Source: Alphaproteobacteria bacterium (GTDB taxonomy: Bacteria > Pseudomonadota > Alphaproteobacteria > GCA-002720895). From it: 62,213 nt of DNA. The position numbers and the translations under genes are program-made. The stretch is taken from assembly GCA_022450705.1 (NCBI GenBank), contig JAKUPP010000002.1, forward strand, positions 1-62,213, in the 5' to 3' direction. A model generated the notes under the pieces. It was given only the letters and a program-made list of their open reading frames with translations. It did not search any database and was not told the DNA's origin. Shown here piece by piece: positions 6,127 through 53,629 of this stretch (position 1 is its first letter; each line of letters opens with the position of its first letter).

Positions 6127-6177
6127 TATTTTTTGTTCATTAGATAATATACTTTTTTTAGGTTAAAAGCTTTTTCT

Positions 6178-7663: not shown

Positions 7664-7664
7664 T

Positions 7665-8414: not shown

Positions 8415-8461
8415 GATGATAAATATTTACACTCTAAAAATACAATTTCAATTAAAAAAAA

Positions 8462-10359: not shown

Positions 10360-10369
10360 TTTTATATTT

Positions 10370-10579
10370 TTAATTTAAGAATTTAATTAAGAATACTAAA
10401 GCGAATATTAAAATAATTATACCTTGTGTTATAACTCTAATTCTCATTAATTTGTTTGAATATTTTTTATTAAAATCACCTTTTAATAGCATTGATACTA
10501 AGCCTATAACCAGGACAACAAAAACTAAAACAAGTCCAATAATTATTAATATTGGTGCGATTTTTGTAAAAAATTCCAT
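10370..10579 (-). CDS. Twin transmembrane helix small protein (HIG1-domain family)
   Basis: 69 aa, two TM helices joined by a KGDFNKKYSNKLMRIRV loop, as in HIG_1_N family proteins. Confidence 0.6.
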   Translation of the reverse strand: MEFFTKIAPILIIIGLVLVFVVLVIGLVSMLLKGDFNKKYSNKLMRIRVITQGIIILIFALVFLIKFLN

Positions 10580-10588
10580 TAATTAAAA

Positions 10589-12262: not shown

Positions 12263-12275
12263 ATTATATAATATA

Positions 12276-13508
12276 CTATTTTAAAGTCTTCATGCCAGGT
12301 TTCTTTGCTTGAACTAGTACGGCCATATTGCCAGGTTTATGTTCATTTCTTGCCATTTTCATATGTGCTTCTGGTATGTCTTTCCAACTTAGTACTTCGG
12401 ACATACAAGGATTTATATTTTTATTAATAATTAATTTATTTGCCTCTGAAGCTTGTTTTAAAGTTGCAAAATGACTTCCTTGTATTCTTTTTTGATGCAT
12501 CCATCCATAACGCGCATCAAATGTTAAATTATATCCACTTGTAGCTGCACAATAAACAACCATACCACCTCTTTTTACTACAAAACAAGAAACAGGAAAA
12601 GTTTGACCACCTGGATGTTCAAAGACACTATCTACTGCAATATACTTTCCCGTATATTCCCAAATTGCTTTTCCAAATTCTTTAACTTTTTCTATGTACT
12701 CCCCATATGCTTTTACATCATTTACATCTGGTAATTCACCCCAACAATCGAAATTTTTTCTATTGATAACACCTTTTGCTCCAATAGATTTTACATATTT
12801 TATTTTGTCATCGCTTGATACAACTCCTATTGCATTTGCACCAGCAAATTTAACTAATTGTGTTGCAAAAACACCCAAACCTCCAGTTGCTCCCCAAACT
12901 AATACATTTTGACCTGGCTTGAGAGAGTGAGGATCGTGGCCGTATAGCATTCTGTAAGCTGTTGCTAGACATAGAACATAGCAACCACTTTCTTCCCATG
13001 TAAGATGTTTAGGTCTATGCATTATTTGTTGTTGTTGGACTGAAGTAAATTGTGCAAATGATCCATCAGGAGTTTCATATCCCCAAATTCTTTGTGAATT
13101 TGATAGCATTGGATCACCTCCATTACATTCTTCATCATCTCCGTCATCTTGATTACAATGAATTACAACTTCATCTCCAACTTTCCACCTTTTTACTTTT
13201 GAACCAACTGCCCAAATAATTCCAGATGCATCAGATCCTGCAATATGAAATTCTGCTTTATGGTAATCAAATGGGGAAATAGGAACACCTCGAGAAGCCC
13301 AAACACCATTATAGTTAACACCTGCAGCCATAACCATAACAAGCACATCGTTTTCACCTACTTTTGGAGTGTCAACTACTTCTACTTTCATAGCAGCTGT
13401 AGGATCGCCATGTCTTTCTCTTCTAATTAGCCATCCGTACATTTGTTTAGGCACATGCCCTAATGGTGGAATTTCGCCTATTTCATATAATTCTTTTTTT
13501 TCGTTCAT
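12276..13508 (-). CDS. ccr: Crotonyl-CoA carboxylase/reductase
   Basis: 410-aa MDR-family enzyme. N-terminal ELYEIGEIPPLGHVPKQMYGWLIRRERHGDP and VMAAGVNYNGVWA blocks are typical of Ccr. Divergent from ecm. Confidence 0.85.
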   Translation of the reverse strand: MNEKKELYEIGEIPPLGHVPKQMYGWLIRRERHGDPTAAMKVEVVDTPKVGENDVLVMVMAAGVNYNGVWASRGVPISPFDYHKAEFHIAGSDASGIIWAVGSKVKRWKVGDEVVIHCNQDDGDDEECNGGDPMLSNSQRIWGYETPDGSFAQFTSVQQQQIMHRPKHLTWEESGCYVLCLATAYRMLYGHDPHSLKPGQNVLVWGATGGLGVFATQLVKFAGANAIGVVSSDDKIKYVKSIGAKGVINRKNFDCWGELPDVNDVKAYGEYIEKVKEFGKAIWEYTGKYIAVDSVFEHPGGQTFPVSCFVVKRGGMVVYCAATSGYNLTFDARYGWMHQKRIQGSHFATLKQASEANKLIINKNINPCMSEVLSWKDIPEAHMKMARNEHKPGNMAVLVQAKKPGMKTLK

Positions 13509-13600
13509 TTAGATATTTTTAATATAATAGATAATATAAAATCTAATAAATTTTTTTTTTATAACTATATATACTTTTTTTTTGTTATTAAAAACAAAAT

Positions 13601-15580
13601 ATGAATAAAAAAGATAAAAACAACAAAGATAACATATGGTTAATAAGAACCTATTCGGGACATTCTTCTGCAAAAGAATCAAATAAGCTTTATAAAACAA
13701 ACTTAAAAAAAGGGCAAACGGGATTATCAGTTGCTTTTGATCTTCCAACTCAAACAGGATATGACTCTGATCATATTTTGGCTCGAGGAGAAGTAGGTAA
13801 AGTAGGGGTGCCAGTTTGTCATGTTGGAGATATGTTAGAATTATTTAAAAACATTCCAATTGGGAAAATGAATACTTCAATGACAATAAACGCTACAGCT
13901 GCTTGGTTACTTTCATTGTACATTGCTGCTGCCGAAAAGAGAGGTTATAAAAGAAAAGATCTTCAAGGCACTACACAAAATGATGTTATTAAAGAATATC
14001 TATCTAGAGGGACATATATTTTTCCTCCTAAAGAAAGCATGAAAATAACTTCTGATATTATTTCATTTACATATAAAGAAATACCAAAATGGAATCCTAT
14101 TAACATTTGTTCTTATCATCTTCAAGAAGTGGGCGCGACCCCCGAACAAGAAATTTCTTATGCACTTTCAAATGCATGCGAGGTTTTAAACACTTTAAAA
14201 AAAAATGGTCAAATTCCAGAAAAAGACTTCCCTATAGTTGTAGGTAGAATTAGTTTTTTTGTTAATGCAGGAATTAGATTTATTACTGAAGTTTGTAAAA
14301 TGAGAGCAATGACTTCTTTGTGGCACGAGATATGTAGTAAAAAATTTAAAGTTAAAGATGAAAAATTTAAAAGGTTAAGATACGGAGTTCAAGTAAATTC
14401 CCTTGGCTTGACCGAACCTCAACCAGAAAATAATGTTTATAGAATACTATTGGAAATGCTATCAGTGGTTTTGTCAAAGGATTCAAGAGCAAGAGCAGTG
14501 CAACTACCAGCATGGAATGAAGCACTCGGACTACCAAGACCCTGGGATCAACAATGGAGTATTAGATTACAGCAAATAATTGCATACGAAACTGATCTAC
14601 TAGAATATCAAGATATTTTTAATGGATCTAAGGTTATTGATAATAAAGTGAAAAAATTAAAAGAAATAGTTAATAAAGAATTAAAAGTTATTGAAAAAAT
14701 GGGAGGAACCGTAGCAGCTGTAGAAAATAGTTATATGAAAAATAACTTAGTTAAATCTATGTCTAAAAGAGTTTCAGCTATTGAAAATGCGGAACAAATA
14801 GTTGTAGGAGTTAATAAATTTACAGATACTGCGGAATCTCCATTACGAAATGATAAAGAAGGTTTTATAAAAGTGGACCCTAGTGCAGAAAAAGAACAAA
14901 TTAGCAAGCTAATAAATTGGAGAAAAAAAAGAAACGAATCTAAATGTATTAAAGCATTAAAAAAATTGAAAGAAATAGCATCTCTTAACAAAAATATAAT
15001 GGATGCATCTATAGAATGTGCCCATGTAGGAGTTACAACAGGGGAGTGGACGGATACATTGAGAGAAATTTATGGGGAATATAGAGCCCCAACTGGTGTT
15101 GGAAAAACATCTAAAATAGATAAAAAAAATCATAAACAAATTAATGAAAGAATAAATAAAATATCTTTGAAACTAAAAAGAAGAGTAAAGTTATTAATTG
15201 GTAAGCCTGGTTTGGATGGACATTCAAGCGGTGCAGAACAAATATCAGTTGCGGCTAGAGATGTAGGCATGGAAGTTGTTTATCAAGGTATTAGACTTAC
15301 ACCAGAACAAATAGTTAATACTGCCATTGAAGAAAGTGTACATATGATAGCTTTATCAATACTTTCTGGTTCCCACTTATCTTTAACTCAAGAAATTATA
15401 AAATTATTAAAAAAAAATAAAATTTCAAATATTCCTCTTGTTGTTGGAGGTATAATTCCTCGTGAAGATGAAAAAAAAATGTTAAAACTTGGAGTATCAC
15501 GAATATATACTCCTAAAAATTATGATGTAAATTCAATTATGTCAGATTTTGCAAATATACTTGAGAAACATTATCTTTAA
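13601..15580 (+). CDS. ecm: Ethylmalonyl-CoA mutase (single-chain, adenosylcobalamin-dependent acyl-CoA mutase)
   Basis: IRTYSGHSS substrate-barrel motif (His where MCM has Phe), GLSVAFDLPTQTGYDSD block, and C-terminal B12-binding DxHxxG motif (LDGHSSG). 659 aa. Confidence 0.8.
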   Translation: MNKKDKNNKDNIWLIRTYSGHSSAKESNKLYKTNLKKGQTGLSVAFDLPTQTGYDSDHILARGEVGKVGVPVCHVGDMLELFKNIPIGKMNTSMTINATAAWLLSLYIAAAEKRGYKRKDLQGTTQNDVIKEYLSRGTYIFPPKESMKITSDIISFTYKEIPKWNPINICSYHLQEVGATPEQEISYALSNACEVLNTLKKNGQIPEKDFPIVVGRISFFVNAGIRFITEVCKMRAMTSLWHEICSKKFKVKDEKFKRLRYGVQVNSLGLTEPQPENNVYRILLEMLSVVLSKDSRARAVQLPAWNEALGLPRPWDQQWSIRLQQIIAYETDLLEYQDIFNGSKVIDNKVKKLKEIVNKELKVIEKMGGTVAAVENSYMKNNLVKSMSKRVSAIENAEQIVVGVNKFTDTAESPLRNDKEGFIKVDPSAEKEQISKLINWRKKRNESKCIKALKKLKEIASLNKNIMDASIECAHVGVTTGEWTDTLREIYGEYRAPTGVGKTSKIDKKNHKQINERINKISLKLKRRVKLLIGKPGLDGHSSGAEQISVAARDVGMEVVYQGIRLTPEQIVNTAIEESVHMIALSILSGSHLSLTQEIIKLLKKNKISNIPLVVGGIIPREDEKKMLKLGVSRIYTPKNYDVNSIMSDFANILEKHYL

Positions 15581-15595
15581 ATAATTTTTTTTTAA

Positions 15596-16462
15596 ATGTC
15601 TTTCATTCAAAGATTAAAAGATTGTAATACACATAAAGAATCAAATTTTTTTAAATTCTTTATCAACAATTATCACGTTGGTTTTATTAAAAAAAAAAAT
15701 TTAAATATAATCAATAAATTTCCAGAAATCTTTTCTATCAAAGCAAATAAAATTATTCTAAAAAAAGAATTTAACAATTTCAAAAAAAGAACCTACGCAA
15801 TAAATCGAGTTTTTAATTTTTTAGTAAATAAAAAAATAATTTCAGCTAAACACCGAGAACAATTTCCTGTATTTAAATCATTTAAGGACAAGCCTCTTTT
15901 AAAAGTTCAAAGATTAGCAGGCCCATTTTTTGGTTTTCAATTTTTTGGCGTGCACCTAAATGGTTTTTTAAAAAAAAATGATAAGTTTTTTATGTGGGTT
16001 GGAAGAAGATCAGCAAATGGCAATTTTCCAAAAGATTTAGATCAGATCGCAGCAGGAGGCTTGCCGTTTAATGTTACAATTAAAAATAATCTTATTAAAG
16101 AATCTTATGAGGAAGCAAATATTCATAAAAAATTAATATTAAAATCTAAATATTTAGGAACTGTTTCTTATAGAGTTGAAACTAATTTAGGTCTTAGCAG
16201 ACATATTTTATTTTGCTATAACTTAGAATTACCTAAAGACTTTACTCCTAAAAATAATGATGGTGAAATAACAAAATTCTATCTTTGGCCAATAGAAAAA
16301 ATACTAAAAATTATAAAAGAATCTAGGAAGTTTAAATTTGACTGTGCTTTAGTTATTCTTTTATTTGCACAAAATAAAAAAATAATACAAATCAATAAAA
16401 TCCTAAAAAAGTTAAACAACAAATCTGATTTAAGAATTTTAAAAAAAATTAAACAGAATTAA
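15596..16462 (+). CDS. NUDIX hydrolase family protein (DUF4743-type N-terminal domain)
   Basis: Degenerate Nudix box GGLPFNVTIKNNLIKESYEEANI in the C-terminal half. The 3' end is overlapped by uppP by 24 nt. Confidence 0.6.
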   Translation: MSFIQRLKDCNTHKESNFFKFFINNYHVGFIKKKNLNIINKFPEIFSIKANKIILKKEFNNFKKRTYAINRVFNFLVNKKIISAKHREQFPVFKSFKDKPLLKVQRLAGPFFGFQFFGVHLNGFLKKNDKFFMWVGRRSANGNFPKDLDQIAAGGLPFNVTIKNNLIKESYEEANIHKKLILKSKYLGTVSYRVETNLGLSRHILFCYNLELPKDFTPKNNDGEITKFYLWPIEKILKIIKESRKFKFDCALVILLFAQNKKIIQINKILKKLNNKSDLRILKKIKQN

Positions 16463-17248
16463 GAAAATAATTGCTACTACTATCCTATATATAACAAAAA
16501 TCTTAAAATTTATTTTTTTCAATAATTTAATAAAAAAAGAAATTGTAAAATAAGCAATTAAAAAACTTAAAAGAAATACTAGTAAAGTTTCAATCCAAAG
16601 AAAAAGAGAGTTTTGTTTTATAATATCAAAGAACATCATAAATGATGCGCCTAATATAGCTGGAATAGATAAATACATTGAATATTTTGCTGAAGAAATT
16701 CTATTGTATCCCAAAAACCGTGCTCCGGTAATACACAATCCTGCTCTGCTTGATCCAGGCACTAATGCAAATATTTGTAAAATACCTATAAAAAAAGAAT
16801 CTTTAAATGAAATATCAGTAATTTTTTTATTAGTCTTATTTTTATCTGAAAAAAAAAGAAGAAATGAAAAAAAAATTGCAGAGTAAGCAATTAAACTTGG
16901 GTTATATATATAATTTATATTTTGAAGTTTTAGAAATGCACCAAGTATGATAATTGGAATCGAACTGCAAACCAAATTTAAAAACAATTTAAAATTAAAA
17001 GTTTTTTTTTTTTTAAAAACTTCAAGTGGGCCAAAAATTAAATAATTTTTAAAGTCTTGCCAAAAGTAAATTGATACTGCAAATAAAGTTCCTAAATGCG
17101 CTGATATCATTAATGTTAAATTAATATCTTTCCAAGAAAATAATTCATTAACAAAAAAAATATGTCCAGACGAACTTATTGGTAAAAATTCAGTAATTCC
17201 TTGTACAACAGCCGTAATTATTATTTGAAATATATTGCCAACGTCCAT
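16439..17248 (-). CDS. uppP: Undecaprenyl-diphosphate phosphatase
   Basis: BacA/UppP motifs GITEFLPISSSGH and PGSSRAG. 8 TM helices. Confidence 0.9.
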   Translation of the reverse strand: MDVGNIFQIIITAVVQGITEFLPISSSGHIFFVNELFSWKDINLTLMISAHLGTLFAVSIYFWQDFKNYLIFGPLEVFKKKKTFNFKLFLNLVCSSIPIIILGAFLKLQNINYIYNPSLIAYSAIFFSFLLFFSDKNKTNKKITDISFKDSFFIGILQIFALVPGSSRAGLCITGARFLGYNRISSAKYSMYLSIPAILGASFMMFFDIIKQNSLFLWIETLLVFLLSFLIAYFTISFFIKLLKKINFKIFVIYRIVVAIIFLILFNFF

Positions 17249-17308
17249 AAAATTTAATTATAACTTTAATTTATCTTAATAATAGGTCAGTTATACTGAC
17301 TAAATATT

Positions 17309-17330
17309 CGTTGATTTACAACGGTTTTTT
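17309..17330 (+). promoter_or_regulatory. Inverted repeat CGTTG-N5-CAACG followed by GTTTTTT in the gltD leader (terminator-like hairpin or operator)
   Basis: Read directly from the sequence. It lies between the divergent uppP and gltD starts, with no upstream plus-strand gene to terminate. Confidence 0.25.
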
Positions 17331-21700: not shown

Positions 21701-23309
21701 AGTGTCTGAAGAAATTGCACAATTAAGACATTCAACCAAAGGAGTAACATTGATTTCTCCCCCACCTCACCATGATATTTATTCAATTGAAGATCTTGCG
21801 CAACTTATTTATGATTTAAAACAAATAAATCCTGAAGCTAGAGTATGTGTAAAATTAGTTTCTCGATCTGGAATCGGAACAATCGCAGCAGGTGTGGCAA
21901 AAGCGAAAGCAGATACAATTTTAATATCGGGACATTCAGGAGGAACCGGAGCTAGTCCTCAAACAAGTATTAAATATGCAGGTACACCATGGGAATTAGG
22001 TTTATCTGAAGTCCATCAAATTTTAGTTGCTAATAATTTACGTCATAAAGTTCGTTTACGAACTGACGGGGGTATAAAAACTGGAAGAGATGTTATTATA
22101 GCTTCTATATTAGGAGCGGAAGAATATGGTATTGGAACAACCTCTTTAGTTGCAATGGGTTGTATACTTGTTAGACAATGTCATAGCGATGTATGTCCTG
22201 TCGGTATATGCACACAAAAACCTGAATTAAGAAAGAAATTTGAAGGTACGCCAGAAAAAGTTATAAATCTTTTTTCATTTATAGCAAGAGAGTCTAGGGA
22301 ATTATTATCACGATTAGGATTTAATTCTATAAATGAAATTATTGGAAGAACAGAATTATTAAGACAAATTAGCAAAGAAAATATAACAGTTGACACTATT
22401 GATTTAAATTCATTATTAGTCAAAGCAGAGTCTAAAAATCCTGTATACTGTACAATAAAGAAACGAAACGAAGTTCCTGAAAGTTTAGATAAAGAAATTA
22501 TTAATGATCTATTAGTTAAAAGAAAAAATAATAAATTAGGAAAAATTAATTTAAATTATTTTATAAAAAATACAGATAGGGCTATCGGAGCAAAATTATC
22601 ATCATTTATTACTAATAAAAAATTAGAAATAAATGAAAAAGAAATAATACAAGTTAAATTAAAAGGTAGCGCAGGTCAGTCTTTAGGTGCTTTTTTAGTA
22701 AAACAAATTGAAATTTTTGTTGAAGGAGATGCGAATGATTATGTAGGTAAAGGATTAAGTGGAGGAAAAATAATAATTAAACCTGGTGCAAATTCAAACT
22801 TTCTTCCGGATGAAAATATAATTATTGGTAATACAGTTTTATATGGAGCTACAAGCGGAGAACTTTTTGCAAATGGTCAAGCAGGCGAAAGATTTGCAGT
22901 AAGGAATTCAGGAGCCAATGCTGTTATTGAAGGTTGTAGTAATAATGGTTGCGAATATATGACTGGTGGAACAGTGGTGATTTTAGGTAAAGTTGGTGAA
23001 AATTTTGCTGCTGGTATGACAGGTGGAATGGCTTTTATATATGATATCGATAATATTTTTCCTAATTACATAAATACTGATTCTGTGATTTATTGTAAAT
23101 TAAATAAGTCTTATTGGGAAAATATTTTAAAAGACTTAATTCTTCGCCATATAAAATTTACTAACTCAGAGCTAGCAAAAAAAATAATTGCAAAATGGTC
23201 AACCGAGAAAAAAAATTTTTGGCAAGTAGTGCCATTAGAAATAATTGATAAATTAGAAAAACCTATATTAACTGAAAAAAATACAGTTTTACAAAAAAAA
23301 TTAGCTTAA
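18792..23309 (+). CDS. gltB: Glutamate synthase large subunit
   Basis: 1505 aa. N-terminal Ntn amidotransferase Cys (HDSCGVG), FMN/3Fe-4S central domains, C-terminal GXGXG repeats. 7-nt overlap with gltD. Confidence 0.97.
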   Translation: MLEKKNKNFKKLFKSGIYNTSQEHDSCGVGLVASINGQHNRDVVEAGIKALKAVWHRGAVDADGKTGDGAGIQISFPQEFFKDYIRSLGVVPSKKNIGVGMIFLPRTDMVSQEICRTITEREIINSGNKIYCWRSVPVNLTAVGQKANDNRPEIEQIFFENSKNLKDDEFEKELFILRRKIEKRIPPNAKKDFYICSLSSKSIIYKGMFLAEQIDKFYPDLNHKAFISNFAIFHQRYSTNTFPTWSLAQPFRVLSHNGEINTIQGNINWSIIHESKMFSENLGENIKEIFPIIQDGASDSAALDSFYELLLHSGKDLPMIKALTIPEAKNKNQNKKIKDFYEYCYSVLEPWDGPAAIAAYGKDWVIAGMDRNGFRPMRYTITNKNILFVGSETGMVQINNADVVKKGHIGPGQIVGVNLKEGRFYNSEAIKNDLVNRHPYHKWLKRIKKFIAQNNISQNNSLYFKEDDLKKRQMAAGWNIEDLELILDPMTFDKIEAVGSMGDDTPITLLSKNYRGLYPFFRQNFSQVTNPPMDSLRETNVMSLNTRLGNLCNILEESESQCNFILLQSPFLLTSEYEYLKKKLKNKSKEIDCIFSVNKKSENLEKSLKKIQEEAEELVRSGVEHILLTDRKVNLKTAAIPMPLAVGAIHTHLVNEGLRSFVSINVQAADILDVHSFAVLIGVGATTINPYLAERTILNRYKKNNSLGINSKEVVENYKSSIEKGLLKIMSKMGISVLSSYRAGYNFEVVGLNRTLVADLFPGMPSRISGLRFNEIENKVINLHTKAFKEQFLSLPIGGYYKFRKNGENHYYQPTLIHTLQNAVNNNSYEKFKVYSKGIDNLPLINIRDLFAFRNLKKEVSLSKVEPEENIYKRFGSGSMSHGALSKEAHETLAIAMNRMGAYSCSGEGGEDEKRFISLPNGDSKNSRVKQIASGRFGVTAKYLNNCKEIEIKMAQGAKPGEGGQLPGFKVSEEIAQLRHSTKGVTLISPPPHHDIYSIEDLAQLIYDLKQINPEARVCVKLVSRSGIGTIAAGVAKAKADTILISGHSGGTGASPQTSIKYAGTPWELGLSEVHQILVANNLRHKVRLRTDGGIKTGRDVIIASILGAEEYGIGTTSLVAMGCILVRQCHSDVCPVGICTQKPELRKKFEGTPEKVINLFSFIARESRELLSRLGFNSINEIIGRTELLRQISKENITVDTIDLNSLLVKAESKNPVYCTIKKRNEVPESLDKEIINDLLVKRKNNKLGKINLNYFIKNTDRAIGAKLSSFITNKKLEINEKEIIQVKLKGSAGQSLGAFLVKQIEIFVEGDANDYVGKGLSGGKIIIKPGANSNFLPDENIIIGNTVLYGATSGELFANGQAGERFAVRNSGANAVIEGCSNNGCEYMTGGTVVILGKVGENFAAGMTGGMAFIYDIDNIFPNYINTDSVIYCKLNKSYWENILKDLILRHIKFTNSELAKKIIAKWSTEKKNFWQVVPLEIIDKLEKPILTEKNTVLQKKLA

Positions 23310-25438
23310 TTATAAAATAATTTAGATTTTTTTCTTTCTAGTTTAACTCTATCAAAAATAAAAAATAAAACTATAAACTGCATAATTCCATGTTCTTTAT
23401 CCATATAATTTGGTGAAATAGCTAAAATTTCTTCTAAATTTTTTGAGATTTTCTTTAATTCTGATTTAAAATTTTTTAAAATCATATCCTTAGAATTTAA
23501 TTCAATACTTAAATAATTTTTTTCTTCTTTATATTTAAAATTTTTAAAAATTTTTGAGATTACATTCTTTAGTAAACTTGTATTTATTTCTTTTTTTATT
23601 AAGAATTTAATTTTTGTTTCTACCCATTCATTATTATATTCTTTTTTCACATTCTTTTCATTTAAAGAATTAATTTGAAAAATAATATCCGCATATTTTT
23701 TTTGTTTTTTTATATAAAGATCTGAATCTTTTTTTCTTCTTTTAATTTCGTGAATTATTTCTTTTTTTTTATATTTTCTTCTTTTTATATCACGATTAAT
23801 TTTAAAATATTTTCTTAAATTTTCATTTACATCTAAAAAAATAGAAATGTCTGTAATATTTCTTACTTTTTGGCAATACAATGAATGGAGTCCTATTATT
23901 AAAACAAAATCTTTTTTCCTTATTTTTTTTTTGTAGGTAAATTTTCCTGTTTCGTGGTCATATTCTCTACAGATTACCGTCTTACCATTTTTTAAAGAAA
24001 TACAATCTTTTTCAAATTGTTTTAAATTATTAGCTTTAGGATTTAAATGAGTTAACTTCCCCCATTTTTTTGAATTTCTTTCATAAAGATGGTAATCGTC
24101 TCCGCTTAATGAAGCTACGGAGTTTTCTCCAAAGACACCACCAATAGCCTTTCCTAAAGTATCTTTTCCAGCGGCCGAATCTCCTGCGATTCCAATTAAT
24201 ATTGGTTTATAAACTAATCTAAAGAATTCATTTTCAAAAATATTTTTTTTAATCATAATATAAACTAAAATTAATCCAGTAATTGACAATATTGCTAAAC
24301 TCCCATCTTTTGCTAAATCAAATGATAATTTTTCTAGGTTTGTTAATAAAATAGTAGATAAATCTTTATTTATGTAATAGTAATCCATTTTAAAAAAATG
24401 AATTATAGATCCATCATCTATAATAAGTTTGTTAAAAACAAAAATTATTGAAAATATTAAAACTCCATTTTTAAAAAAAATTGAATTTGTATTTATTTGG
24501 AAAGCAACTAAAAAGGGTACAACCCACAAATACCAACCTATTTCAGCTGGTGTAAAAATAAGTATAATAAAGAAAGCAATACCAAGAAAAGAGTACAATA
24601 AATTAAAATTCATCCGCCCAATTTTGTAAGCAGCAAAAACTAAAATTAAATAAAGAATAGGCGCGATATATAAGATAATATTATTAAATAAAGTTGTACT
24701 TCTAAAAACTGTATCAAAGGCAGGATTATTTAAAGTCATTTCCTGAAATCCTAATGTGTTAAAGAAAGGACCTTGAATAACAAATATTGTTAGCAGAATA
24801 GTTAAAGTAAATTTCCAGAAAATTTTATAATACCTATTATTCAATAGTAAATAAAAACAAATAAATGGAACTGAAATAATCATGCTTAATTTACAAGCAA
24901 CTGTTAAACCAAGGGTTATTGCAGATATAAAAAAAAATTTTTCTTTTAAAAGATATAAAGAAAGTATTAGTAGAAAAGTAGGAAATATGTCTAACTGACC
25001 ATGCCAGTATGAAATATATAAAACAATAGGTGAGAGCCAATAAAAAAGAATAATTTTTTCTACTTTTTCTCTAAATAATTTTCCTAAAATAAATAAAATA
25101 GATAAGTCTGCAGCAAGTATACTTGATTTAAAACCAATACTTAAAAAATAATTTTGAGCTTGGGATGCAAAATTTAAATTATCGATAATAGAACCAATAA
25201 AACTTAAAGGTAACTGTAAAACTAACATTATTGGTCCATAAGGATAAGATAAAGGATCTTGGCCTGTATTATAAAAATTAGTCCACGGATCAAATGAAAA
25301 ATTTTCTATTGTAAAACTTATAAATTTTAGAAACCATTTATCTTGAATTACTGGTGCTAAAAAAATTATAGCAGTAATTTTAATTAGAAAACCAAACCAA
25401 AAAAATTTGTTATTTTTTATTTGATAAAATAAATTCAT
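23306..25438 (-). CDS. Fusion protein: polytopic GT-C-like membrane domain (aa 1-400) plus uridine kinase/phosphoribulokinase-family P-loop kinase domain (aa 410-600) plus K-rich C-terminal tail
   Basis: At least 10 TM helices with an early loop motif SYPYGP. The kinase half aligns block by block with E. coli Udk: ILIGIAGDSAAGKD (Walker A), GDDYH, VLIIGLHSLY, ISIFLDV, KKYADIIF. Confidence 0.6.
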   Translation of the reverse strand: MNLFYQIKNNKFFWFGFLIKITAIIFLAPVIQDKWFLKFISFTIENFSFDPWTNFYNTGQDPLSYPYGPIMLVLQLPLSFIGSIIDNLNFASQAQNYFLSIGFKSSILAADLSILFILGKLFREKVEKIILFYWLSPIVLYISYWHGQLDIFPTFLLILSLYLLKEKFFFISAITLGLTVACKLSMIISVPFICFYLLLNNRYYKIFWKFTLTILLTIFVIQGPFFNTLGFQEMTLNNPAFDTVFRSTTLFNNIILYIAPILYLILVFAAYKIGRMNFNLLYSFLGIAFFIILIFTPAEIGWYLWVVPFLVAFQINTNSIFFKNGVLIFSIIFVFNKLIIDDGSIIHFFKMDYYYINKDLSTILLTNLEKLSFDLAKDGSLAILSITGLILVYIMIKKNIFENEFFRLVYKPILIGIAGDSAAGKDTLGKAIGGVFGENSVASLSGDDYHLYERNSKKWGKLTHLNPKANNLKQFEKDCISLKNGKTVICREYDHETGKFTYKKKIRKKDFVLIIGLHSLYCQKVRNITDISIFLDVNENLRKYFKINRDIKRRKYKKKEIIHEIKRRKKDSDLYIKKQKKYADIIFQINSLNEKNVKKEYNNEWVETKIKFLIKKEINTSLLKNVISKIFKNFKYKEEKNYLSIELNSKDMILKNFKSELKKISKNLEEILAISPNYMDKEHGIMQFIVLFFIFDRVKLERKKSKLFYN

Positions 25439-25440
25439 TT

Positions 25441-26043
25441 TTATTTATTCCATATTTCAGGATTTTTTGTACACACAGCATCAATATGTATATTTTTTTT
25501 TTGGATAGAATTTTTTAGTTTTTTTAAATTTTGTATCGATGTTTTTTTTACTATTTCAGGAGAAACTATACATATTTTTATATTTTTTTTCTTAAGGCTA
25601 TTTGAAATTGATTTATTTAAAGGAAACTTAGAAAAATGATCTACCCATACCCAATTAATTTTTTTTTTTAAATTATTTATAGTTTTTATATCTTCATATT
25701 CGGAAAATCTTATAGCACACCTCGTTTCATTTGAATTTAATGTTTTTATAAGAAAAGGAAAAGATTGATCAAGAAAGAAAAAGTCTTTTATTTTTTTATT
25801 CTTTAAGATTTTTATAATATATTTTTCCAGACCTTCTTCTTTAATATTAATTATTAAAAATTTATGATTATATTTTCTTATCCAATTATCTAGAAATTCT
25901 CCATTTTTCATTGGATCATGGTTTAAAATAATTTTGTTATTGTAACTTCTAACATCTATTTCTACCCCATATTCTGTAGGAGTATCAATTAATTGTTTAA
26001 TTGTGTTTTTTCTATGACAAATTATTAATGGTTTTAAATACAA
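25441..26043 (-). CDS. Glycerophosphodiester phosphodiesterase (GDPD)/PLC-like TIM-barrel protein, short form
   Basis: IICHRKN ... GVEIDVR ... ILNHDP ... LIINIKEEG match the GDPD HR / E-x-D / HD / E-x-K catalytic blocks (compare UgpQ). Confidence 0.5.
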   Translation of the reverse strand: MYLKPLIICHRKNTIKQLIDTPTEYGVEIDVRSYNNKIILNHDPMKNGEFLDNWIRKYNHKFLIINIKEEGLEKYIIKILKNKKIKDFFFLDQSFPFLIKTLNSNETRCAIRFSEYEDIKTINNLKKKINWVWVDHFSKFPLNKSISNSLKKKNIKICIVSPEIVKKTSIQNLKKLKNSIQKKNIHIDAVCTKNPEIWNK

Positions 26044-26051
26044 AATACTAT

Positions 26052-26750
26052 TTACAATTCTTTTTTTAATTGAAAACTATATTTTATAGTTCTTTTTATA
26101 AATTTCATTTTATTTTTAAAATCCGTGTTCCAATGTGATACACCAAACTTTCTTTCAGGATATTTAACAGGGAACCGGAGTATTTTTAATTTTTTTTTTT
26201 TGGCATTAAAGTAAAAAAATAAATCAAAAGAAAAATCTAATGGAATTTTTTCTAACATATTAAAAAAATTTTTATGAAAAATATTTGGTTGAGCATTAAC
26301 ATCCCAAAAAAATTTTTTTAGTAGAATTGTTTCAAAAATAGACATTCCTATTGTAAAAATAATATCTTTTAAAGGCCTACCCAGCCTATTTCCTTTAATA
26401 AAAATTTTAGGAGACAATTCTTTTTCAAATTTCTCAAAACCTATAATTACATCATATGGATCTGTTTGTAAATCAGCATGGGTCCATGAAATATATTTTC
26501 CTTTTGCTTTTTTTAAACCTTGAAGAATACCATTCCCATATCCATTATTTTTTTTTAACTTTATCATTTTAAGAAAATTATAATCTTTTTTTAAATTTGA
26601 TATGATTGTTTCAGTTGAATCATTTGATCCATTATTAACAAGAATTAATTCTACATCTTTTCGTTTTAATTTTTTTGAGAAATCTTTTACAAGTTTTGGC
26701 AAACTTTTTGCTTCATTAAAACATGGAATTACTATTGATAAATTTATCAT
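26052..26750 (-). CDS. Glycosyltransferase family 2 (polyprenol-phosphate glycosyltransferase-like, soluble form)
   Basis: LSIVIPCFNE, ELILVNNGSNDST and downstream D-x-D-region spacing typical of DPM1/ArnC-type GT2. Confidence 0.75.
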   Translation of the reverse strand: MINLSIVIPCFNEAKSLPKLVKDFSKKLKRKDVELILVNNGSNDSTETIISNLKKDYNFLKMIKLKKNNGYGNGILQGLKKAKGKYISWTHADLQTDPYDVIIGFEKFEKELSPKIFIKGNRLGRPLKDIIFTIGMSIFETILLKKFFWDVNAQPNIFHKNFFNMLEKIPLDFSFDLFFYFNAKKKKLKILRFPVKYPERKFGVSHWNTDFKNKMKFIKRTIKYSFQLKKEL

Positions 26751-26752
26751 TT

Positions 26753-28327
26753 TTATATTGGATTATTTATTTTGTACGAATGGTTTTTCCATAAATTAAA
26801 ATATTCTTGCCAATATTTAAAAGTTTTTAATTCATTAGGGGTTCCCCAAGGCAAGTAATCATCTACTAAGAAAATTTTACATTTGTAACCGAGTTTAATA
26901 GCGTCATTTATAGATGTATCGATATAAAATTCATTATTAACTAAAGCTTTTCGTTTAATCATTTCATTAACAGAATTAATAAAATACTCTATTTTTTTGA
27001 AAGTAAAAGTGCCTAATACTACAGGACTGTCTTTAATATTTTTTAAAGGTTTTTTTACTGATATATAATCTATATTTTCTTTATTTTTTGTTTTAACCCA
27101 ACCAAATTGTTTTGGATTTCTAATAGATTCAAAATGATTTTTTGCCGCCCATACAATTATGTCAGTATTCAATTTATTGTAAAGATTTAGAAATTTTTTT
27201 TCATTAAATATTAAGCCTGTATCACACGAACCTATTGTTACTGGTATTTCTTTATTTTCTTTTTTTAATGTTTCAAGACATGTAATAGCTTGTCCATTCG
27301 TATGCTTATTTAATGAAAATATTTTTACTTTCGGAAAATGTTTTTTTATTTTTTTCTTTAGGGATTTAGAAGAATTATTTTTTTTTGATATTATTACTTT
27401 GGAATAATAATGTTTAGGATGGGTTAACATACTTTGAACTATCATTGGCTTTCCAGAAATCTCTATAAGAGGTTTATGTGTTTTGTAACCTTCTTCAATA
27501 AATCTTAGACCCTTGCCTGCTGCCGGTATAACTAAAACTCCTTTTAATTTTTTTTTTTTAAACTTCTGAATTTTTGAGAATTTTTCTGACCAATTTTTAT
27601 ATTCATTAAAATCCTCTGGCGTTCCCCACTGACTAAAAAAATTAATTTTATAAAACCCAACTTTCTCAGAGTTATTGATCATCGGTTTATAAATCATACT
27701 TATATAATATTCACCTTTTGTCTTTAAGTTATTTTTAAATGATTTATCTAGACAATTCTCAAGAATTTCTTTGTTTTTGAAATAATATGTTCCACTAGAT
27801 GTATATTCATTTATAGGATTCTTGGTAAATGGCTTTTTTTCTTGAATTGCTAAAACTTTTTCTCCCCTTTTTTTTATATATGCAAAATAAGATTTATTTA
27901 TTGTGCTTGGATGAAAATCTTTATAAACAACCACACATCCATCATATTTCTTTTTTTTAACAACCTTTTTAAAATTTTTATAGTTCCAATAACAATTAAA
28001 ATCACAATAATTTATTATTATTGGTCCTTTATTACTTATTTGATTTAATACTTTTGATACACTAAAAGCTGGTCCAAGATTATGAGAATTAATACTAACA
28101 ATTTTTCCAGTAGGGCATTTTTTTTTTAAAATAGAAGATAATTTTATTTTTTTATTTGATAATTGTTTTTTATCACAAATAAATAAAAAATTCTTTTCGC
28201 CTGGAAATAAATCTATAACATGCTCAATTACAAATTTATTATTTATTTTTAATAAAAATTTTGGAGTTTTAAAACCCGCCTTTTTAAAACGGATACTTTT
28301 TCCTACCATTGGAATTATTATTTGCAT
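26753..28327 (-). CDS. Tandem (duplicated) sugar/polyol-phosphate nucleotidyltransferase
   Basis: Two homologous halves. Each starts with a G-x-G-x-RF NTP-binding loop (IIIPMVGKSIRF...TPKFLL; VLVIPAAGKGLRF...HKPLI) and ends with WGTPEDFNEYKNW / WGTPNELKTFKYW. Confidence 0.65.
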   Translation of the reverse strand: MQIIIPMVGKSIRFKKAGFKTPKFLLKINNKFVIEHVIDLFPGEKNFLFICDKKQLSNKKIKLSSILKKKCPTGKIVSINSHNLGPAFSVSKVLNQISNKGPIIINYCDFNCYWNYKNFKKVVKKKKYDGCVVVYKDFHPSTINKSYFAYIKKRGEKVLAIQEKKPFTKNPINEYTSSGTYYFKNKEILENCLDKSFKNNLKTKGEYYISMIYKPMINNSEKVGFYKINFFSQWGTPEDFNEYKNWSEKFSKIQKFKKKKLKGVLVIPAAGKGLRFIEEGYKTHKPLIEISGKPMIVQSMLTHPKHYYSKVIISKKNNSSKSLKKKIKKHFPKVKIFSLNKHTNGQAITCLETLKKENKEIPVTIGSCDTGLIFNEKKFLNLYNKLNTDIIVWAAKNHFESIRNPKQFGWVKTKNKENIDYISVKKPLKNIKDSPVVLGTFTFKKIEYFINSVNEMIKRKALVNNEFYIDTSINDAIKLGYKCKIFLVDDYLPWGTPNELKTFKYWQEYFNLWKNHSYKINNPI

Positions 28328-29314
28328 TTATATTTTATTAAATTTTTGTCTTATTTTTTCTTTTTTCCAATTAATAAGTTCATTTTTTTCTTTCTTACTA
28401 AGAAATGATAAAATAAAGCTTTCAGGAATAACTATTAATAATTCAGCTAAACAAAGCAACATATCATATTCCGTTTTTGATATATTATTTTTTAGAAACA
28501 CACCGGTATTTTTTATAACTATAATCTTTTTTTCATTTTTTTTTTTTAAAAAATCATTAATTGAATTATAAGTTTTGATTTTATTATTTAAAAAAACAGT
28601 ATTATCAGGATATAAAGAATTATTATTTTTAATAATTTCAAAAGATTTTTTCTTCAGTGCTAAAATTTCAATAATTTTATCCTTTGGTTTTTTAAAGTTT
28701 TTTATAAGAAAGTTATTTTTTTTAATTTTTTTTAAATTAAAAGATATTTTTCTTTTTAATTTTGTTTCAATTTTCTTCAAGAGCGAGTTGATTTTTGTTA
28801 GAGTATCTGAAGCAATTATAATTCCATGGTTTTGTAATATATAAATATTTATATCATCTGACATTTTTTTTTCTATTTCTTTTGCTAAATTTAATCCTGG
28901 TTTTTTGTACTTTATCCAAATCCATTTCATGCCTTTTAATTTACTTTCTAAAAGTTTTTTACCATTTTTTAAAATGGCATATGATAAAACTGATATAGAA
29001 TGTAAATGCACAATATATTTTTTATTAATTATTGCATGCATAGTTGTTTCTATCGAAGGATAGCTTGCCGATTTGTAATAGATCCATTTTTTCTCATTTT
29101 CTATATTTTTTTTTATAGAATTTAAATTTATTTTTAAAAATGATTTTTTTTTTAATGAATCTTTTAACCAAGTTCCTGATGATTTTACATAAATTGAATC
29201 ATCTATTTTAATTGAAGTGTTTCCACCAGGCCCGTGAAATAAATTTTTTTTTTTACTAAGATTTTGAGAAAATTTAAAAAATTTTGTTAATTCTAATTTA
29301 ATTTTGATCCTCTT
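28328..29314 (-). CDS. Class II aldolase/adducin-fold protein with C-terminal extension (start codon unresolved)
   Basis: My translation upstream of the listed ATG (29041) stays open to 29314. It encodes HGPGGNTSIK, YVKSSG and PSIETTMH, followed by VHLHS and LQNHG, matching FucA blocks GNVS, TPTG, PSSE..H, HNH and HHG. No ATG/GTG/TTG occurs in frame upstream of 29041. Confidence 0.6.
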   Translation of the reverse strand, partial: KRIKIKLELTKFFKFSQNLSKKKNLFHGPGGNTSIKIDDSIYVKSSGTWLKDSLKKKSFLKINLNSIKKNIENEKKWIYYKSASYPSIETTMHAIINKKYIVHLHSISVLSYAILKNGKKLLESKLKGMKWIWIKYKKPGLNLAKEIEKKMSDDINIYILQNHGIIIASDTLTKINSLLKKIETKLKRKISFNLKKIKKNNFLIKNFKKPKDKIIEILALKKKSFEIIKNNNSLYPDNTVFLNNKIKTYNSINDFLKKKNEKKIIVIKNTGVFLKNNISKTEYDMLLCLAELLIVIPESFILSFLSKKEKNELINWKKEKIRQKFNKI

Positions 29315-29413
29315 TTAAAAATAACAATTTAATTATTAATTCCATACAATATATTATAAATCAATAGAATATCTTTTTTTTTAAATTTTTTAAAATATTT
29401 AGGTTTAAAAATA

Positions 29414-30577
29414 ATGACTAATATAGAAAATAAAAAAATAATTCTTCAAATTATACCTTCGATGGAAATGGGTGGCGCTGAAATGGGAACATTAGAGATT
29501 TCACGTTATATGAAAAAAAAAGGATGGAATGTGATAGTTGCTTCATCTGGTGGTTCGTTAGTAAAAAAATTAACTATAAAAAATATTCTTCATATTAAAC
29601 TACCATTAAAGTCTAAAAATCCATTAATTATTTTTTTTAATATTTTTAGAATAGCTTGGGTTATAAAAAAAAATAAAATCAAAATAGTGCATCTTAGAAG
29701 TAGAGCACCTGCTTGGAGCGCTTATTACGCATGTTCAATGTTTAGAGGGATAAAAATAGTTTCTACTATTCATGGAGCATACAGTGTCCAGAACTTTTTT
29801 AAAAAAATTTATAACTCAATTATGTTAAAACCAACATCTATCATTGCAATTTCTAAATATGTTAAAAATTATTTACTTACAAATTATAAATTTTCAAAAA
29901 GAAAAAAAGAATCAATATTTATTATTCCTAGAGGTGTGGATCTAGAAAGATTTGATCCAAAAAACGTTGATTCTCAAAGACTTTTTTTTCTTTCAAATAA
30001 TTGGCAACTACCTGACGGAATTCCAATTATATTATTTCCATCAAGAATAGCTCCATTTAAAGGTCACAAAACTCTTTTAAAAGCAATTGCAATATTAAAA
30101 AAAGATCCAAAAATTCCGTTCATTTGTTTAATGCCAGGTCTAGTGAAAAAAAATTCTAATTACGAAAATGAGTTAAATTCAATTATTCAAGATAATGAAC
30201 TTGCTGATTATATAAGATTTCCAGGGCTTTGTTTTGATATGCCCGCAGCATATAAAATATCTGACATTGTTGTATCCGCAGCTGATAAACCAGAAGGGTT
30301 TGGTAGAATAATTATTGAATCTCAGTCTATGGAAAGACCTGTAATTGCAAGCGCGCATGGAGGTTCATTAGAATTAATTAAAAATAATTATAATGGGCTA
30401 CTTTTTAAACCTAAAAATGAACAAGATTTAGCAGATAAAATTAAATATTTACTTCGTTTATCTCAAAAAGAAAAAAAAAAGATTGTAAAAAGAGCAAAGG
30501 AAATTGTTAATAAAAAATACAATATCGATAATATGTGCGAATCAAACTTTAAATTATATAACTCTATTGTCCGATAA
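29414..30577 (+). CDS. Glycosyltransferase family 4 (GT-B, retaining)
   Basis: N-terminal MGGAEMGTLEISRYM and C-terminal EGFGRIIIESQSMERPVIAS (E-x7-E region). Confidence 0.8.
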   Translation: MTNIENKKIILQIIPSMEMGGAEMGTLEISRYMKKKGWNVIVASSGGSLVKKLTIKNILHIKLPLKSKNPLIIFFNIFRIAWVIKKNKIKIVHLRSRAPAWSAYYACSMFRGIKIVSTIHGAYSVQNFFKKIYNSIMLKPTSIIAISKYVKNYLLTNYKFSKRKKESIFIIPRGVDLERFDPKNVDSQRLFFLSNNWQLPDGIPIILFPSRIAPFKGHKTLLKAIAILKKDPKIPFICLMPGLVKKNSNYENELNSIIQDNELADYIRFPGLCFDMPAAYKISDIVVSAADKPEGFGRIIIESQSMERPVIASAHGGSLELIKNNYNGLLFKPKNEQDLADKIKYLLRLSQKEKKKIVKRAKEIVNKKYNIDNMCESNFKLYNSIVR

Positions 30578-30586
30578 AATAAAGAA

Positions 30587-31540
30587 ATGGCTTTAAAAAA
30601 AAATCTTTTAATTATTAAACATGGAGCATTAGGAGATTTTATTTTATCTTTTGGTCCTTTTAAAGCTATAAGAGATTATCATTTAAATGATCATATAGTT
30701 TTGTTAACAAACAGTATTTTTAAAGAATTTGCCGAGGAAAGTAATTATTTTGATGAAATAATAATAGATGACAGAGCATCTATTTGGAATACACAAAAAA
30801 TATTTAAGTTAGCAAATTTATTAAGAAAGAAGAATTTTTATAGAATTTATGATCTTCAAACTTCACAAAGAAGTTCTTTTTATTATAATTTTTTTAGATT
30901 TAAAAATAATATTGAATGGTCAGGAGTCGCGCATGGGTGCTCACATCCTGATAGGAATCCTGATAGAAACAAAATTCATACAATAGAGAGGCATAAAATA
31001 CAGCTAGAAGAAATTGGAATCAAGAATGTAAAGTTGAGTGACTTTTCTTGGGTAAAGAGTACTAATAATTATAAGATTGAAGAACCTTATATATTATTTT
31101 CTCCGGGCGGCTCTTTACATAGATTAAAAAAAAGATGGCCAGTAGAAAATTATGTAGAAATAGCAAAAAAATTTTTACGAAAAAAAATAACTCCAGTTAT
31201 ATTAGGCACTTCTGAAGATTTGGAAATGGGAAATTTTATTTTGATGAATGCAAACGGTTGTATAAATTTAGTGAACAAAACAACAATACAAGACCTTTGT
31301 ATTTTAGCTAAAGATGCGCAATTAGCTATTGGCAATGATACAGGCCCCATGCATGCATTTTCAATGTGCGGTTGTAACTCATTAGTTTTATTTTCAGATG
31401 ATTCTAATCCTAAACGATGCGCACCTAGGGCAATAAATAAAAAGAAATTAGTTAAGATTATACAAAAAAATGATTTAAGAAATCTTACAGTTGATGAGGT
31501 TTTACATTCTTTACGTAATGACTTTAGATACGATTTGTAA
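30587..31540 (+). CDS. Glycosyltransferase family 9 (heptosyltransferase-like), second copy in window
   Basis: KHGALGDFILS N-terminus and GNDTGPMHAFSMCG C-terminal GT9 motif. Confidence 0.7.
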   Translation: MALKKNLLIIKHGALGDFILSFGPFKAIRDYHLNDHIVLLTNSIFKEFAEESNYFDEIIIDDRASIWNTQKIFKLANLLRKKNFYRIYDLQTSQRSSFYYNFFRFKNNIEWSGVAHGCSHPDRNPDRNKIHTIERHKIQLEEIGIKNVKLSDFSWVKSTNNYKIEEPYILFSPGGSLHRLKKRWPVENYVEIAKKFLRKKITPVILGTSEDLEMGNFILMNANGCINLVNKTTIQDLCILAKDAQLAIGNDTGPMHAFSMCGCNSLVLFSDDSNPKRCAPRAINKKKLVKIIQKNDLRNLTVDEVLHSLRNDFRYDL

Positions 31541-40114: not shown

Positions 40115-40190
40115 TGGTGCCCCCTACGAGTTTCGAACTCGTGTTTCCGCGTTGAGAACGCAGCGTCCTAGACCACTAGACGAAGGGGAC
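40115..40190 (-). tRNA. tRNA-Glu (anticodon CUC), CCA encoded
   Basis: The reverse complement GTCCCCTTCGTCTAGTGGTCTAGGACGCTGCGTTCTCAACGCGGAAACACGAGTTCGAAACTCGTAGGGGGCACCA aligns position by position with E. coli tRNA-Glu. Anticodon loop is TT-CTC-AA. Confidence 0.85.
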
Positions 40191-53528: not shown

Positions 53529-53532
53529 AGTT

Positions 53533-53611: not shown

Positions 53612-53629
53612 TATATAAAATATAAAAAA

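Follow-up and report, generated by a model that had tools for sequence, protein, structure and literature searches.

We analyzed a 62,213-nt stretch of DNA from an Alphaproteobacteria bacterium (contig JAKUPP010000002.1 of assembly GCA_022450705.1, positions 1 to 62,213; hereafter the window) and focused on the gene located at 23306..25438 on the minus strand. The window is strongly AT-rich (approximately 21-33% GC). The gene is one unbroken open reading frame (ORF) of 710 aa, which joins a predicted GT-C glycosyltransferase domain to a phosphoribulokinase (PRK)-like kinase domain. The single frame had been reported in an earlier note made from the sequence alone, and every motif quoted there was found in the translation: DPLSYPYGP (residues 61-69), PILIGIAGDSAAGKD, SGDDYH, FVLIIGLHSLY, DISIFLDV and KKYADIIF. 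The two domains of the fusion are the following:

23306..24211, minus strand: type-II phosphoribulokinase-like kinase domain, residues ~410-710 (Pfam, NCBIfam, phmmer against the PDB, Foldseek and residue conservation)
24236..25438, minus strand: predicted GT-C glycosyltransferase domain, residues 1-~401 (AlphaFold2 (AF2) model, GT87 matches in homologues, PIG-M profile match, invariant residues and charge pattern)

The region 23000-26200 was tiled by contigs of four independent marine metagenome runs, in which no insertion or deletion was found. The database search returned hundreds of full-length homologues of approximately 690-715 aa, and a scan of one genome per species detected relatives of the fusion in at least 488 species. 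Complete genomes also carry it, for example that of Lysobacter firmicutimachus (CP159925). Using the first 405 aa as a query against 1.84 billion representative proteins, we observed that 123 of the best 150 matches, which were the ones judged, were at least 600 aa long and thus included the kinase, suggesting that this GT-C subfamily nearly always bears a kinase. Overall, the fusion gene encodes a genuine, widely conserved GT-C/PRK protein. Its homologues are labelled 'uridine kinase', 'phosphoribulokinase', 'GT87 family protein' or 'hypothetical' in the databases, and the first two names are misleading for this family.

A split in the metagenome data was observed at 24248-24249. In all four runs, some unitigs tracked the kinase-domain sequence up to 24248 and then diverged, at codon ~397, exactly at the GT-C/kinase junction. 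The consensus of one divergent unitig was in frame and presented another sequence for transmembrane (TM) helix 12 (GITISEKIL versus GLILVYIMI). Co-occurring strains seem to possess near-identical kinase halves and divergent membrane halves, and possible causes of the split are recombination at the boundary between the domains or a higher rate of divergence.

The C-terminal part had been placed in the PRK/Udk family, in agreement with the match of Pfam PRK (PF00485) to residues 414-591 (124.7 bits for a cutoff of 22, E 5e-36). The choice of E. coli Udk as the closest relative did not hold: phmmer against the PDB gave E values of 1e-36 to 1e-34 for PRKs and 5e-13 for Udk, and the udk equivalog models failed (NF004018, 77.6 bits for a cutoff of 180; TIGR00235, 66 bits for a cutoff of 220.3). 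The best NCBIfam model was the cyanobacterial-type PRK (PRK07429), with 194.5 bits and under the cutoff of 236, which makes the domain PRK-like and not a curated PRK. Among the Foldseek matches listed, the top ones to the kinase were PRKs (9qkp/9qko/9qkn, 5b3f and 6kev), and PRK structures were aligned over ~300-350 columns with a target-normalised TM-score of 0.6-0.82. Because the alignment extends that far, the residues after the Udk-like part, previously described as a Lys-rich tail, correspond to the C-terminal half of the PRK fold. In the AF2 model (pLDDT ~90 over residues 410-700) the PRK fold is complete, including the C-terminal sheet and a C-terminal helix that ends with G-I-M-Q.

Residue conservation in the fusion was counted over 95 homologues. 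The P-loop of the kinase is GIAGDSAAGKDT, in which G419, S421, G424 and K425 are invariant (95/95). D447, H450, R454, H495, R549, D550 and R554 are also invariant in 95/95 homologues, and K546 is invariant or nearly so. We take H450, R454, K546, R549, D550 and R554 to be equivalent to the residues of Rhodobacter sphaeroides PRK that bind the phosphate of ribulose 5-phosphate (Ru5P); the R. sphaeroides residues presumed to map onto the kinase are D42, H45, R49, R168, D169 and R173. D447 and H495 correspond to the Asp/His catalytic dyad described for plant-type PRK (PMC9978339).

With type-II PRKs of plants, cyanobacteria and archaea (6gve, 6kev, 5b3f and the 'cyanobacteria-specific PRK' 9qko/9qkp/9qkn, on which a literature search for the corresponding paper gave nothing relevant), the kinase shares the full-length fold, the dyad and the C-terminal helix, together with the motifs GxAxDSxxGK (P-loop), DDYH...DR, YxHxTG, GLH and KIxRDxxxRG. 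In contrast with these enzymes, it lies behind a 400-aa membrane domain, has the Walker-B Glu replaced, lacks redox Cys pairs, scores under the NCBIfam PRK cutoff and occurs in heterotrophs within a glycan-modification cassette. No RuBisCO gene was annotated at any locus examined. As modelled, the kinase domain is a complete type-II PRK homologue with a predicted cytoplasmic location, and it is probably active. Its most likely substrate would be a pentulose 5-phosphate, ribulose 5-phosphate or a close analogue, phosphorylated at C1. The involvement of pentulose phosphates, at which the earlier note had hinted, is strengthened since the kinase is specifically PRK-like.

The AF2 model of the whole fusion, built from the 95 homologues, reached a pLDDT of 90.7 and a pTM of 0.89. 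For the N-terminal domain, Pfam GT87 gave a weak match in the window protein (16.5 bits for a cutoff of 25, residues 65-219) and matches above cutoff in the orthologues P0063, P0117 and P0005 (30.6, 32.9 and 28.4 bits), with ALG3, Alg6/8 and PMT_2 as secondary matches in orthologues. A profile of this domain searched against PDB sequences matched GPI mannosyltransferase 1 (PIG-M/Gpi14; E 3.6e-6), which aligns with the conserved core at residues ~93-204. These matches support the former proposal of a GT-C-type transferase over a transporter. The domain resembles GT87 (mycobacterial PimE and alpha-1,2-mannosyltransferases) and GT50 PIG-M/Gpi14 enzymes in being polytopic and in having an acidic residue in the first extracytoplasmic loop; it differs from them by the weakness of the similarity (E ~1e-6 to 1e-8) and by the cytoplasmic kinase that it carries. 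GT-C enzymes of GT87 and GT50 depend on polyprenyl- or dolichyl-phosphate-mannose.

The conserved positions of the domain are D50-P51-W52, the SYPYG68 motif of the first loop, D111, Y133-W-x-S-P137, G147-Q-x-D150, K183 and P297..G301-W..W305..P308. D111, D150 and K183 are invariant. D50 is near-invariant (74/95 homologues, and at least 90% of alignment A6), and it is followed by the near-invariant P51 and the invariant W52. A total of 12-13 helices was predicted, and the sidedness of the loops was assigned from the positive-inside charge pattern over the 95 homologues:

N-terminus: net charge +0.7, cytoplasm
Loop 30-68 (first extracytoplasmic loop, EL1): net charge -2.5, periplasm
Segment 146-151: net charge -1.0, periplasm
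Segment 165-169: net charge +1.8, cytoplasm
Segment 199-204: net charge +2.5, cytoplasm
Segment 273-278: net charge +1.4, cytoplasm
Segment 341-369: net charge -1.2, periplasm
Linker 402-412: net charge +1.2, cytoplasm

This pattern suggests 12 membrane passes, with the N-terminus and the kinase in the cytoplasm, where the kinase had been expected to face, and with the conserved acidic and basic residues (D50, YWxSP, D150 and K183) in the periplasm. A topology of 13 passes, with the kinase in the periplasm, was dropped in favor of 12 passes with residues 122-150 periplasmic, because of the family-wide charge pattern. According to its sequence features, the N-terminal domain is a probable GT-C glycosyltransferase of the GT87/PIG-M type.

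The fusion comes last in a compact operon on the minus strand, whose genes are separated by 0-8 nt and follow the order class II aldolase-like protein, tandem nucleotidyltransferase, GT2, 200-aa protein and fusion. The four genes upstream of the fusion are the following:

25441..26043, minus strand: 200-aa protein with a GDPD/PI-PLC-like TIM-barrel fold, 2-nt gap upstream of the fusion (AF2 and Foldseek)
26052..26750, minus strand: GT2 of the polyprenyl-phosphate-sugar-synthase type (GtrB/ArnC/DPM1-like), without a GtrA domain (Pfam Glycos_transf_2, E 2e-24)
26753..28327, minus strand: tandem (double) sugar-phosphate nucleotidyltransferase, 524 aa (Pfam NTP_transferase)
28328..29302, minus strand: class II aldolase/epimerase-like protein of ~325 aa, extended at its C-terminus (Pfam Aldolase_II)

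Sequence searches of Pfam and the PDB gave no match for the 200-aa protein, which is therefore not a Pfam GDPD member by hidden Markov model. Its AF2 model (pLDDT 92.4) was recognized by Foldseek, of which the top 13 matches were all GDPDs (E 6e-7 to 3e-5, TMq 0.69-0.75). H10, R11, N13, E28, D30, R32 and H42 are invariant, so that the catalytic His-Arg...Glu-x-Asp...His set is kept, and the protein is 43-51% identical across bacterial classes. The E. coli homologue is named 'PI-PLC/GDPD family protein' by PGAP. Metatranscriptome contigs gave fragments only; some lie inside the kinase domain, and two cross the junction between this GDPD-like gene and the fusion, which is weak evidence for the co-transcription of the two genes.

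The GT2 is 45-53% identical to the cassette GT2 of two other loci (L001 and L004). Its orthologues are fused to a GtrA_DPMS_TM domain in Lysobacter, and the E. coli and Yersinia cassettes encode a separate GtrA. On the basis of the adjacent GT2 and of these GtrA domains or proteins in orthologous cassettes, the GT-C domain would most likely use a donor linked to polyprenyl phosphate. In the tandem nucleotidyltransferase, the G-x-G-x-R...K signature is intact in each half of the family alignment; similarity was found to 4evw (E 5e-14) for the C-terminal half and to the heptose-1-phosphate guanylyltransferase HddC (6jq8, E 2e-6) for the N-terminal half.

The aldolase-like protein has retained its catalytic Glu and three Zn-binding His residues (E89, H103, H105 and H164, in the numbering of alignment A7), and its closest PDB entries are 3m4r and L-fuculose-1-phosphate aldolases. 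Its homology reaches upstream of the listed ATG. Since, in the region 29296-29320, no ATG, GTG or TTG is present between the upstream stop TAA (29317-29315) and the conserved N-terminus, the likely start is the ATT at 29302 (or the ATC at 29308); an AAGAGG Shine-Dalgarno sequence lies at 29314-29309, and the ATT six nucleotides further on. The same region is identical in an independent metagenome-assembled genome (locus L005, 6060-6410), which argues against a sequencing error as the cause of the missing standard start codon. A short ATG ORF (MELIIKLLFLKEDQN) in another frame ends just at this start region.

The operon is convergent with gltB and divergent from lipopolysaccharide (LPS)-core-type GT4 and GT9 (heptosyltransferase-like) genes at 29414-31540 on the plus strand, which suggest the LPS core as the local glycan context. 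Elsewhere, the window holds a three-gene cluster at 41452-44625 on the minus strand, encoding CMAS (cyclopropane-fatty-acyl-phospholipid synthase), a DUF1365 protein and a flavin amine-oxidase-like protein, as well as a tRNA (40118-40190, minus strand) and a signal recognition particle (SRP) RNA (53530-53616, plus strand).

To describe the surroundings of the fusion in other genomes, we used a scripted synteny survey that covered 85 loci, distributed over Alpha-, Beta- and Gammaproteobacteria, Acidobacteria, Dehalococcoidia and Bacteroidota. The following proteins were found near the fusion:

200-aa GDPD-fold protein, adjacent: 79/85 loci
HAD phosphatase: 77/85 loci
Class II aldolase-like protein: 62/85 loci
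Tandem nucleotidyltransferase: 62/85 loci
GT2, often fused to or beside GtrA: ~65/85 loci

Cassette genes that were not seen mostly correspond to contig ends. The link once proposed to the class II aldolase-fold neighbour is borne out, as this gene belongs to the conserved cassette. In Lysobacter, Teichococcus and Pseudothioglobus, the same gene set surrounds the fusion and the HAD phosphatase is directly downstream; the HAD protein keeps the DxD motif and resembles PH1655 and N-acylneuraminate-9-phosphatase. Alignments of the GDPD-fold, aldolase-like, nucleotidyltransferase and HAD proteins indicated that all these cassette enzymes keep their catalytic signatures.

The cassette is horizontally mobile. 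In E. coli, a full eight-gene cassette is present at 4986-17325 of the 33-kb plasmid NZ_CP145712.1 (locus L085, from a human stool isolate), bounded by a frameshifted IS26 on one side and an intact IS26 on the other. PGAP names its products sugar phosphate nucleotidyltransferase, GtrA, GT2, PI-PLC/GDPD family protein, 'uridine kinase', HAD hydrolase, class II aldolase and a 586-aa hypothetical membrane protein. A second E. coli with the same region is strain ES3, isolated from a bullfrog, and the cassette was detectable by DNA search in only 2 of 5426 complete E. coli genomes. In Yersinia proxima the cassette forms an island adjoining the hut genes. Close homologues (~70% identity) were observed in Yersinia, Pseudomonas, Paraburkholderia, Burkholderia, Janthinobacterium and Polaromonas, and this spread over several genera argues for horizontal transfer. 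Taken together, the fusion marks a conserved cassette that moves horizontally.

The membrane proteins that follow the cassette vary between lineages. The second polytopic protein of Lysobacter is a GT87 paralogue, and those of E. coli, Yersinia and Pseudothioglobus have ~580-590 aa and ~10 TM helices, without a Pfam match. Roseomonas-type loci possess instead a soluble 374-aa protein and a 442-aa multi-pass membrane protein. The coordinates of these extra proteins are 12932-14515 (L001), 12950-14722 (L004), 13820-15562 (L078), 13224-14984 (L085) and 12927-15379 (L003). Such lineage-specific proteins may set the acceptor specificity. The window and its 91%-identical relative L005 carry a reduced five-gene cassette without the HAD phosphatase, GtrA and second membrane protein. 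This is a marine (SAR11-like, ~27% GC) version, as opposed to the forms of L001, L003, L004, L078 and L085.

The combination of GT2, GtrA and GT-C follows the three-component logic of periplasmic glycan modification known for Gtr (PMC7685785), and all three are present in the E. coli, Yersinia, Lysobacter and Pseudothioglobus cassettes. Compared with Gtr (GtrA flippase, GtrB GT2 and GtrC/GtrV GT-C), ArnC/ArnT and PpgS/Rv3630, the shared features are the GT2 synthase, GtrA in most cassettes and the polytopic GT-C, all co-encoded. As with Gtr systems, the module is mobile and located outside the main glycan locus, as illustrated by the IS26-flanked E. coli plasmid copy and the Yersinia island. 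The cassette differs from these systems by the covalent fusion of its GT-C to a kinase and, in the window, by the lack of both GtrA and HAD. It also possesses additional enzymes (the PRK-like kinase, the class II aldolase-like protein, the tandem nucleotidyltransferase, the GDPD-fold protein and the HAD phosphatase), which point to a dedicated route to a non-standard sugar.

The logic of this route, from a sugar-phosphate kinase to a bisphosphate, a HAD phosphatase and a nucleotidyltransferase, is shared with the NDP-heptose pathway (HddA/HldE, GmhB HAD and HddC/HldE), of which HddC is the enzyme resembled by the N-terminal half of the cassette nucleotidyltransferase. However, the NDP-heptose kinases are of the GHMP or ribokinase type, whereas the cassette kinase belongs to the PRK superfamily and would act on ketose C1 and not on an anomeric hydroxyl. 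Moreover, the cassette has no GmhA-type isomerase and possesses the aldolase-like and GDPD-fold proteins in addition.

We propose, with a probability of approximately 0.6, that the fusion is a bifunctional inner-membrane GT-C/PRK enzyme of a Gtr/Arn-like periplasmic glycan-modification system, equipped with a dedicated precursor pathway that would begin with a pentulose 5-phosphate. The kinase domain would convert the pentulose 5-phosphate into a ketose 1,5-bisphosphate, which the class II aldolase-like enzyme would remodel or epimerise. The aldolase and dehydratase members of that family (FucA, RhaD and MtnB) usually act on ketose 1-phosphates. The HAD phosphatase, absent from the streamlined genome of the window, would take off one phosphate, and the tandem nucleotidyltransferase would form a nucleotide sugar, with a share of the GDPD-fold enzyme in the activation. 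GT2 would then attach the sugar to polyprenyl phosphate, the polyprenyl-linked sugar would be flipped by GtrA in the cassettes that have it, and the GT-C domain would pass the sugar from polyprenyl phosphate on to an envelope glycan. The fusion may couple the initial cytoplasmic reaction to the final periplasmic one, by co-localisation or channelling, by membrane recruitment or by a fixed stoichiometry. The architecture, folds, residue conservation, synteny and mobility were observed here, whereas the topology, the substrates, the sequence of reactions, the acceptor and the purpose of the fusion are inferred.

Several points weigh against this proposal. First, PRK-type phosphorylation hits the non-anomeric C1 of the ketose, so that a glycosyl donor could be obtained only through one more reaction, which is without precedent and for which the GDPD-fold enzyme and the other half of the nucleotidyltransferase are the obvious candidates. 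Second, the Walker-B Glu of PRK and Udk ('EGLH') is Ile515 in the window (codon ~23894-23896), and the 95 homologues carry Ser (60), Glu (11), Thr (10) or Ile (7) at this position. With this Glu lost, the catalysis might be impaired or altered. Third, the second polytopic protein that follows the cassette in most lineages could be the real acceptor-specific transferase. Fourth, the window lacks the HAD phosphatase and GtrA, both near-universal in other versions of the cassette, as is the second polytopic protein; no homologue of any of the three was detected in the whole 62 kb. In addition, the topology of the fusion was assigned by the charge rule only, and Foldseek of the full model returned only neighbours of the kinase domain, and no GT-C neighbour, among the 50 matches listed. 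Finally, our literature search on GT-C or GT87 domains joined to PRK found no characterised member of the fusion. The earlier note likewise knew of no characterised example, and this stands; the architecture itself is not rare, being widespread and already deposited.

As to the nature of the sugar, a tentative suggestion, to which we attach a low probability, is that the cassette supplies an activated pent-2-ulofuranose, for instance xylulofuranose, by a route that has been missing so far. The PRK domain would phosphorylate Ru5P or xylulose 5-phosphate at C1, the aldolase-like enzyme would epimerise the ketose 1-phosphate, and removal of the 5-phosphate by the HAD would permit closure of the furanose ring. 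An NDP-1-ketose would then be made by one half of the nucleotidyltransferase, and from it the GDPD-fold enzyme, via the neighbouring anomeric hydroxyl, would form a 1,2-cyclic phosphate, so that the phosphate ends up on the anomeric C2. The true donor for GT2 would be produced by the other half of the nucleotidyltransferase, and the GT-C domain would perform the final transfer. Such a scheme would give a role to every conserved gene, including the tandem nucleotidyltransferase and the phosphodiesterase, whose presence is otherwise hard to explain.

Xylulose-bearing strains include Y. enterocolitica O:5,27 and O:10, E. coli O95/O97, Devosia submarina and C. jejuni RM1221, and the cassette is present in several Yersinia species. 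Xylulofuranose occurs in E. coli O95/O97, of which the O-antigen clusters do not contain the precursor genes (PMC7685785). In Y. enterocolitica O:10, L-Xulf forms a side branch, and the O-antigen cluster is without xylulose genes (PMC11380512). No genes or nucleotide precursors are known for O-antigen xylulofuranose (PMC7685785; PMC11380512). Xylulofuranose as the sugar of the cassette is only a lead.

Three other readings of the fusion are possible and less well supported. The best of them, which we consider doubtful, is that the substrate of the kinase is a lipid-linked intermediate at the membrane, such as a polyprenyl-phospho-pentose produced by GT2, of which the distal hydroxyl would be phosphorylated. 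The '5-phosphate' pocket of PRK would bind the phosphodiester, and the fusion would hold the kinase at its membrane substrate. The tethering of the kinase to the polytopic domain in nearly all members is consistent with this reading, as are the conserved phosphate-binding Arg and His, which could equally bind a phosphodiester, and the GDPD-fold neighbour, of a fold that acts on phosphodiesters. However, the full set of sugar-phosphate and catalytic residues of PRK is kept, the conserved HAD phosphatase and tandem nucleotidyltransferase indicate a soluble sugar-phosphate route, and to our knowledge there is no PRK-family enzyme that acts on a lipid.

It is slightly less probable that the PRK-like domain is a regulatory pseudokinase, gating the GT-C domain according to the ATP or pentose-phosphate status of the cytoplasm. 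This would agree with the poor conservation of the Walker-B Glu, which coordinates Mg, and with the PRK score of 194.5 for a cutoff of 236. An invariant P-loop G/S/G/K, D447/H495 dyad and D550 in 95/95 homologues would nevertheless be unusual for a pseudokinase, and the downstream HAD and nucleotidyltransferases of the cassette require a phosphorylated sugar. We regard as unlikely a third reading, in which the N-terminal domain is a flippase or a scaffold and the transfer is performed by the variable second polytopic protein, i.e., the GT87 paralogue or the proteins of 580-590 aa. A lineage-specific protein of this kind is indeed encoded after the cassette of Lysobacter, Yersinia, E. coli and Pseudothioglobus, and the window, which lacks GtrA, requires another flipper of the lipid-linked sugar; yet the window and L005 keep the cassette without any second polytopic protein, and the domain has GT-C family matches as well as invariant acidic and basic residues of the kind typical of GT-C active sites.

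A uridine kinase supplying UMP/UTP for UDP-sugar synthesis, as suggested by the source annotations ('uridine kinase') and by Pfam PF00485, which is common to Udk, is effectively refuted by the udk equivalog scores (77.6 and 66 bits for cutoffs of 180 and 220), by the ~23 orders of magnitude by which PRKs outscore Udk and by the presence of the PRK-specific C-terminal half. An assembly or frameshift artefact joining two genes, a risk raised in the earlier note, is refuted: we found no support for it, the unitig branching at 24248 is an in-frame divergent allele and not an indel, the four runs contain no indels, full-length homologues are abundant, and complete genomes and plasmids from many phyla show the same architecture.

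The bifunctional GT-C/PRK enzyme thus belongs to an architecture already present in public deposits, partly under misleading names, and its function is uncharacterised in the literature found. Textbooks associate PRK with RuBisCO and the fixation of CO2. Hundreds of heterotrophic species, among them abundant marine plankton as well as Yersinia, Pseudomonas, Burkholderia and Lysobacter, and also an E. coli plasmid, carry a complete PRK homologue joined to a membrane glycosyltransferase. The fusion cassette appears as a variant of the three-component periplasmic glycosylation systems, with a potentially new sugar-activation chemistry. Since it is compact and mobile, and each of its enzymes is seemingly catalytically intact, the whole pathway should be directly reconstitutable. 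The cassette may also answer the open question of the genes and precursors of xylulofuranose in O-antigens. Overall, the fusion points to an unrecognised pentulose bisphosphate chemistry in the synthesis of cell-surface glycans.

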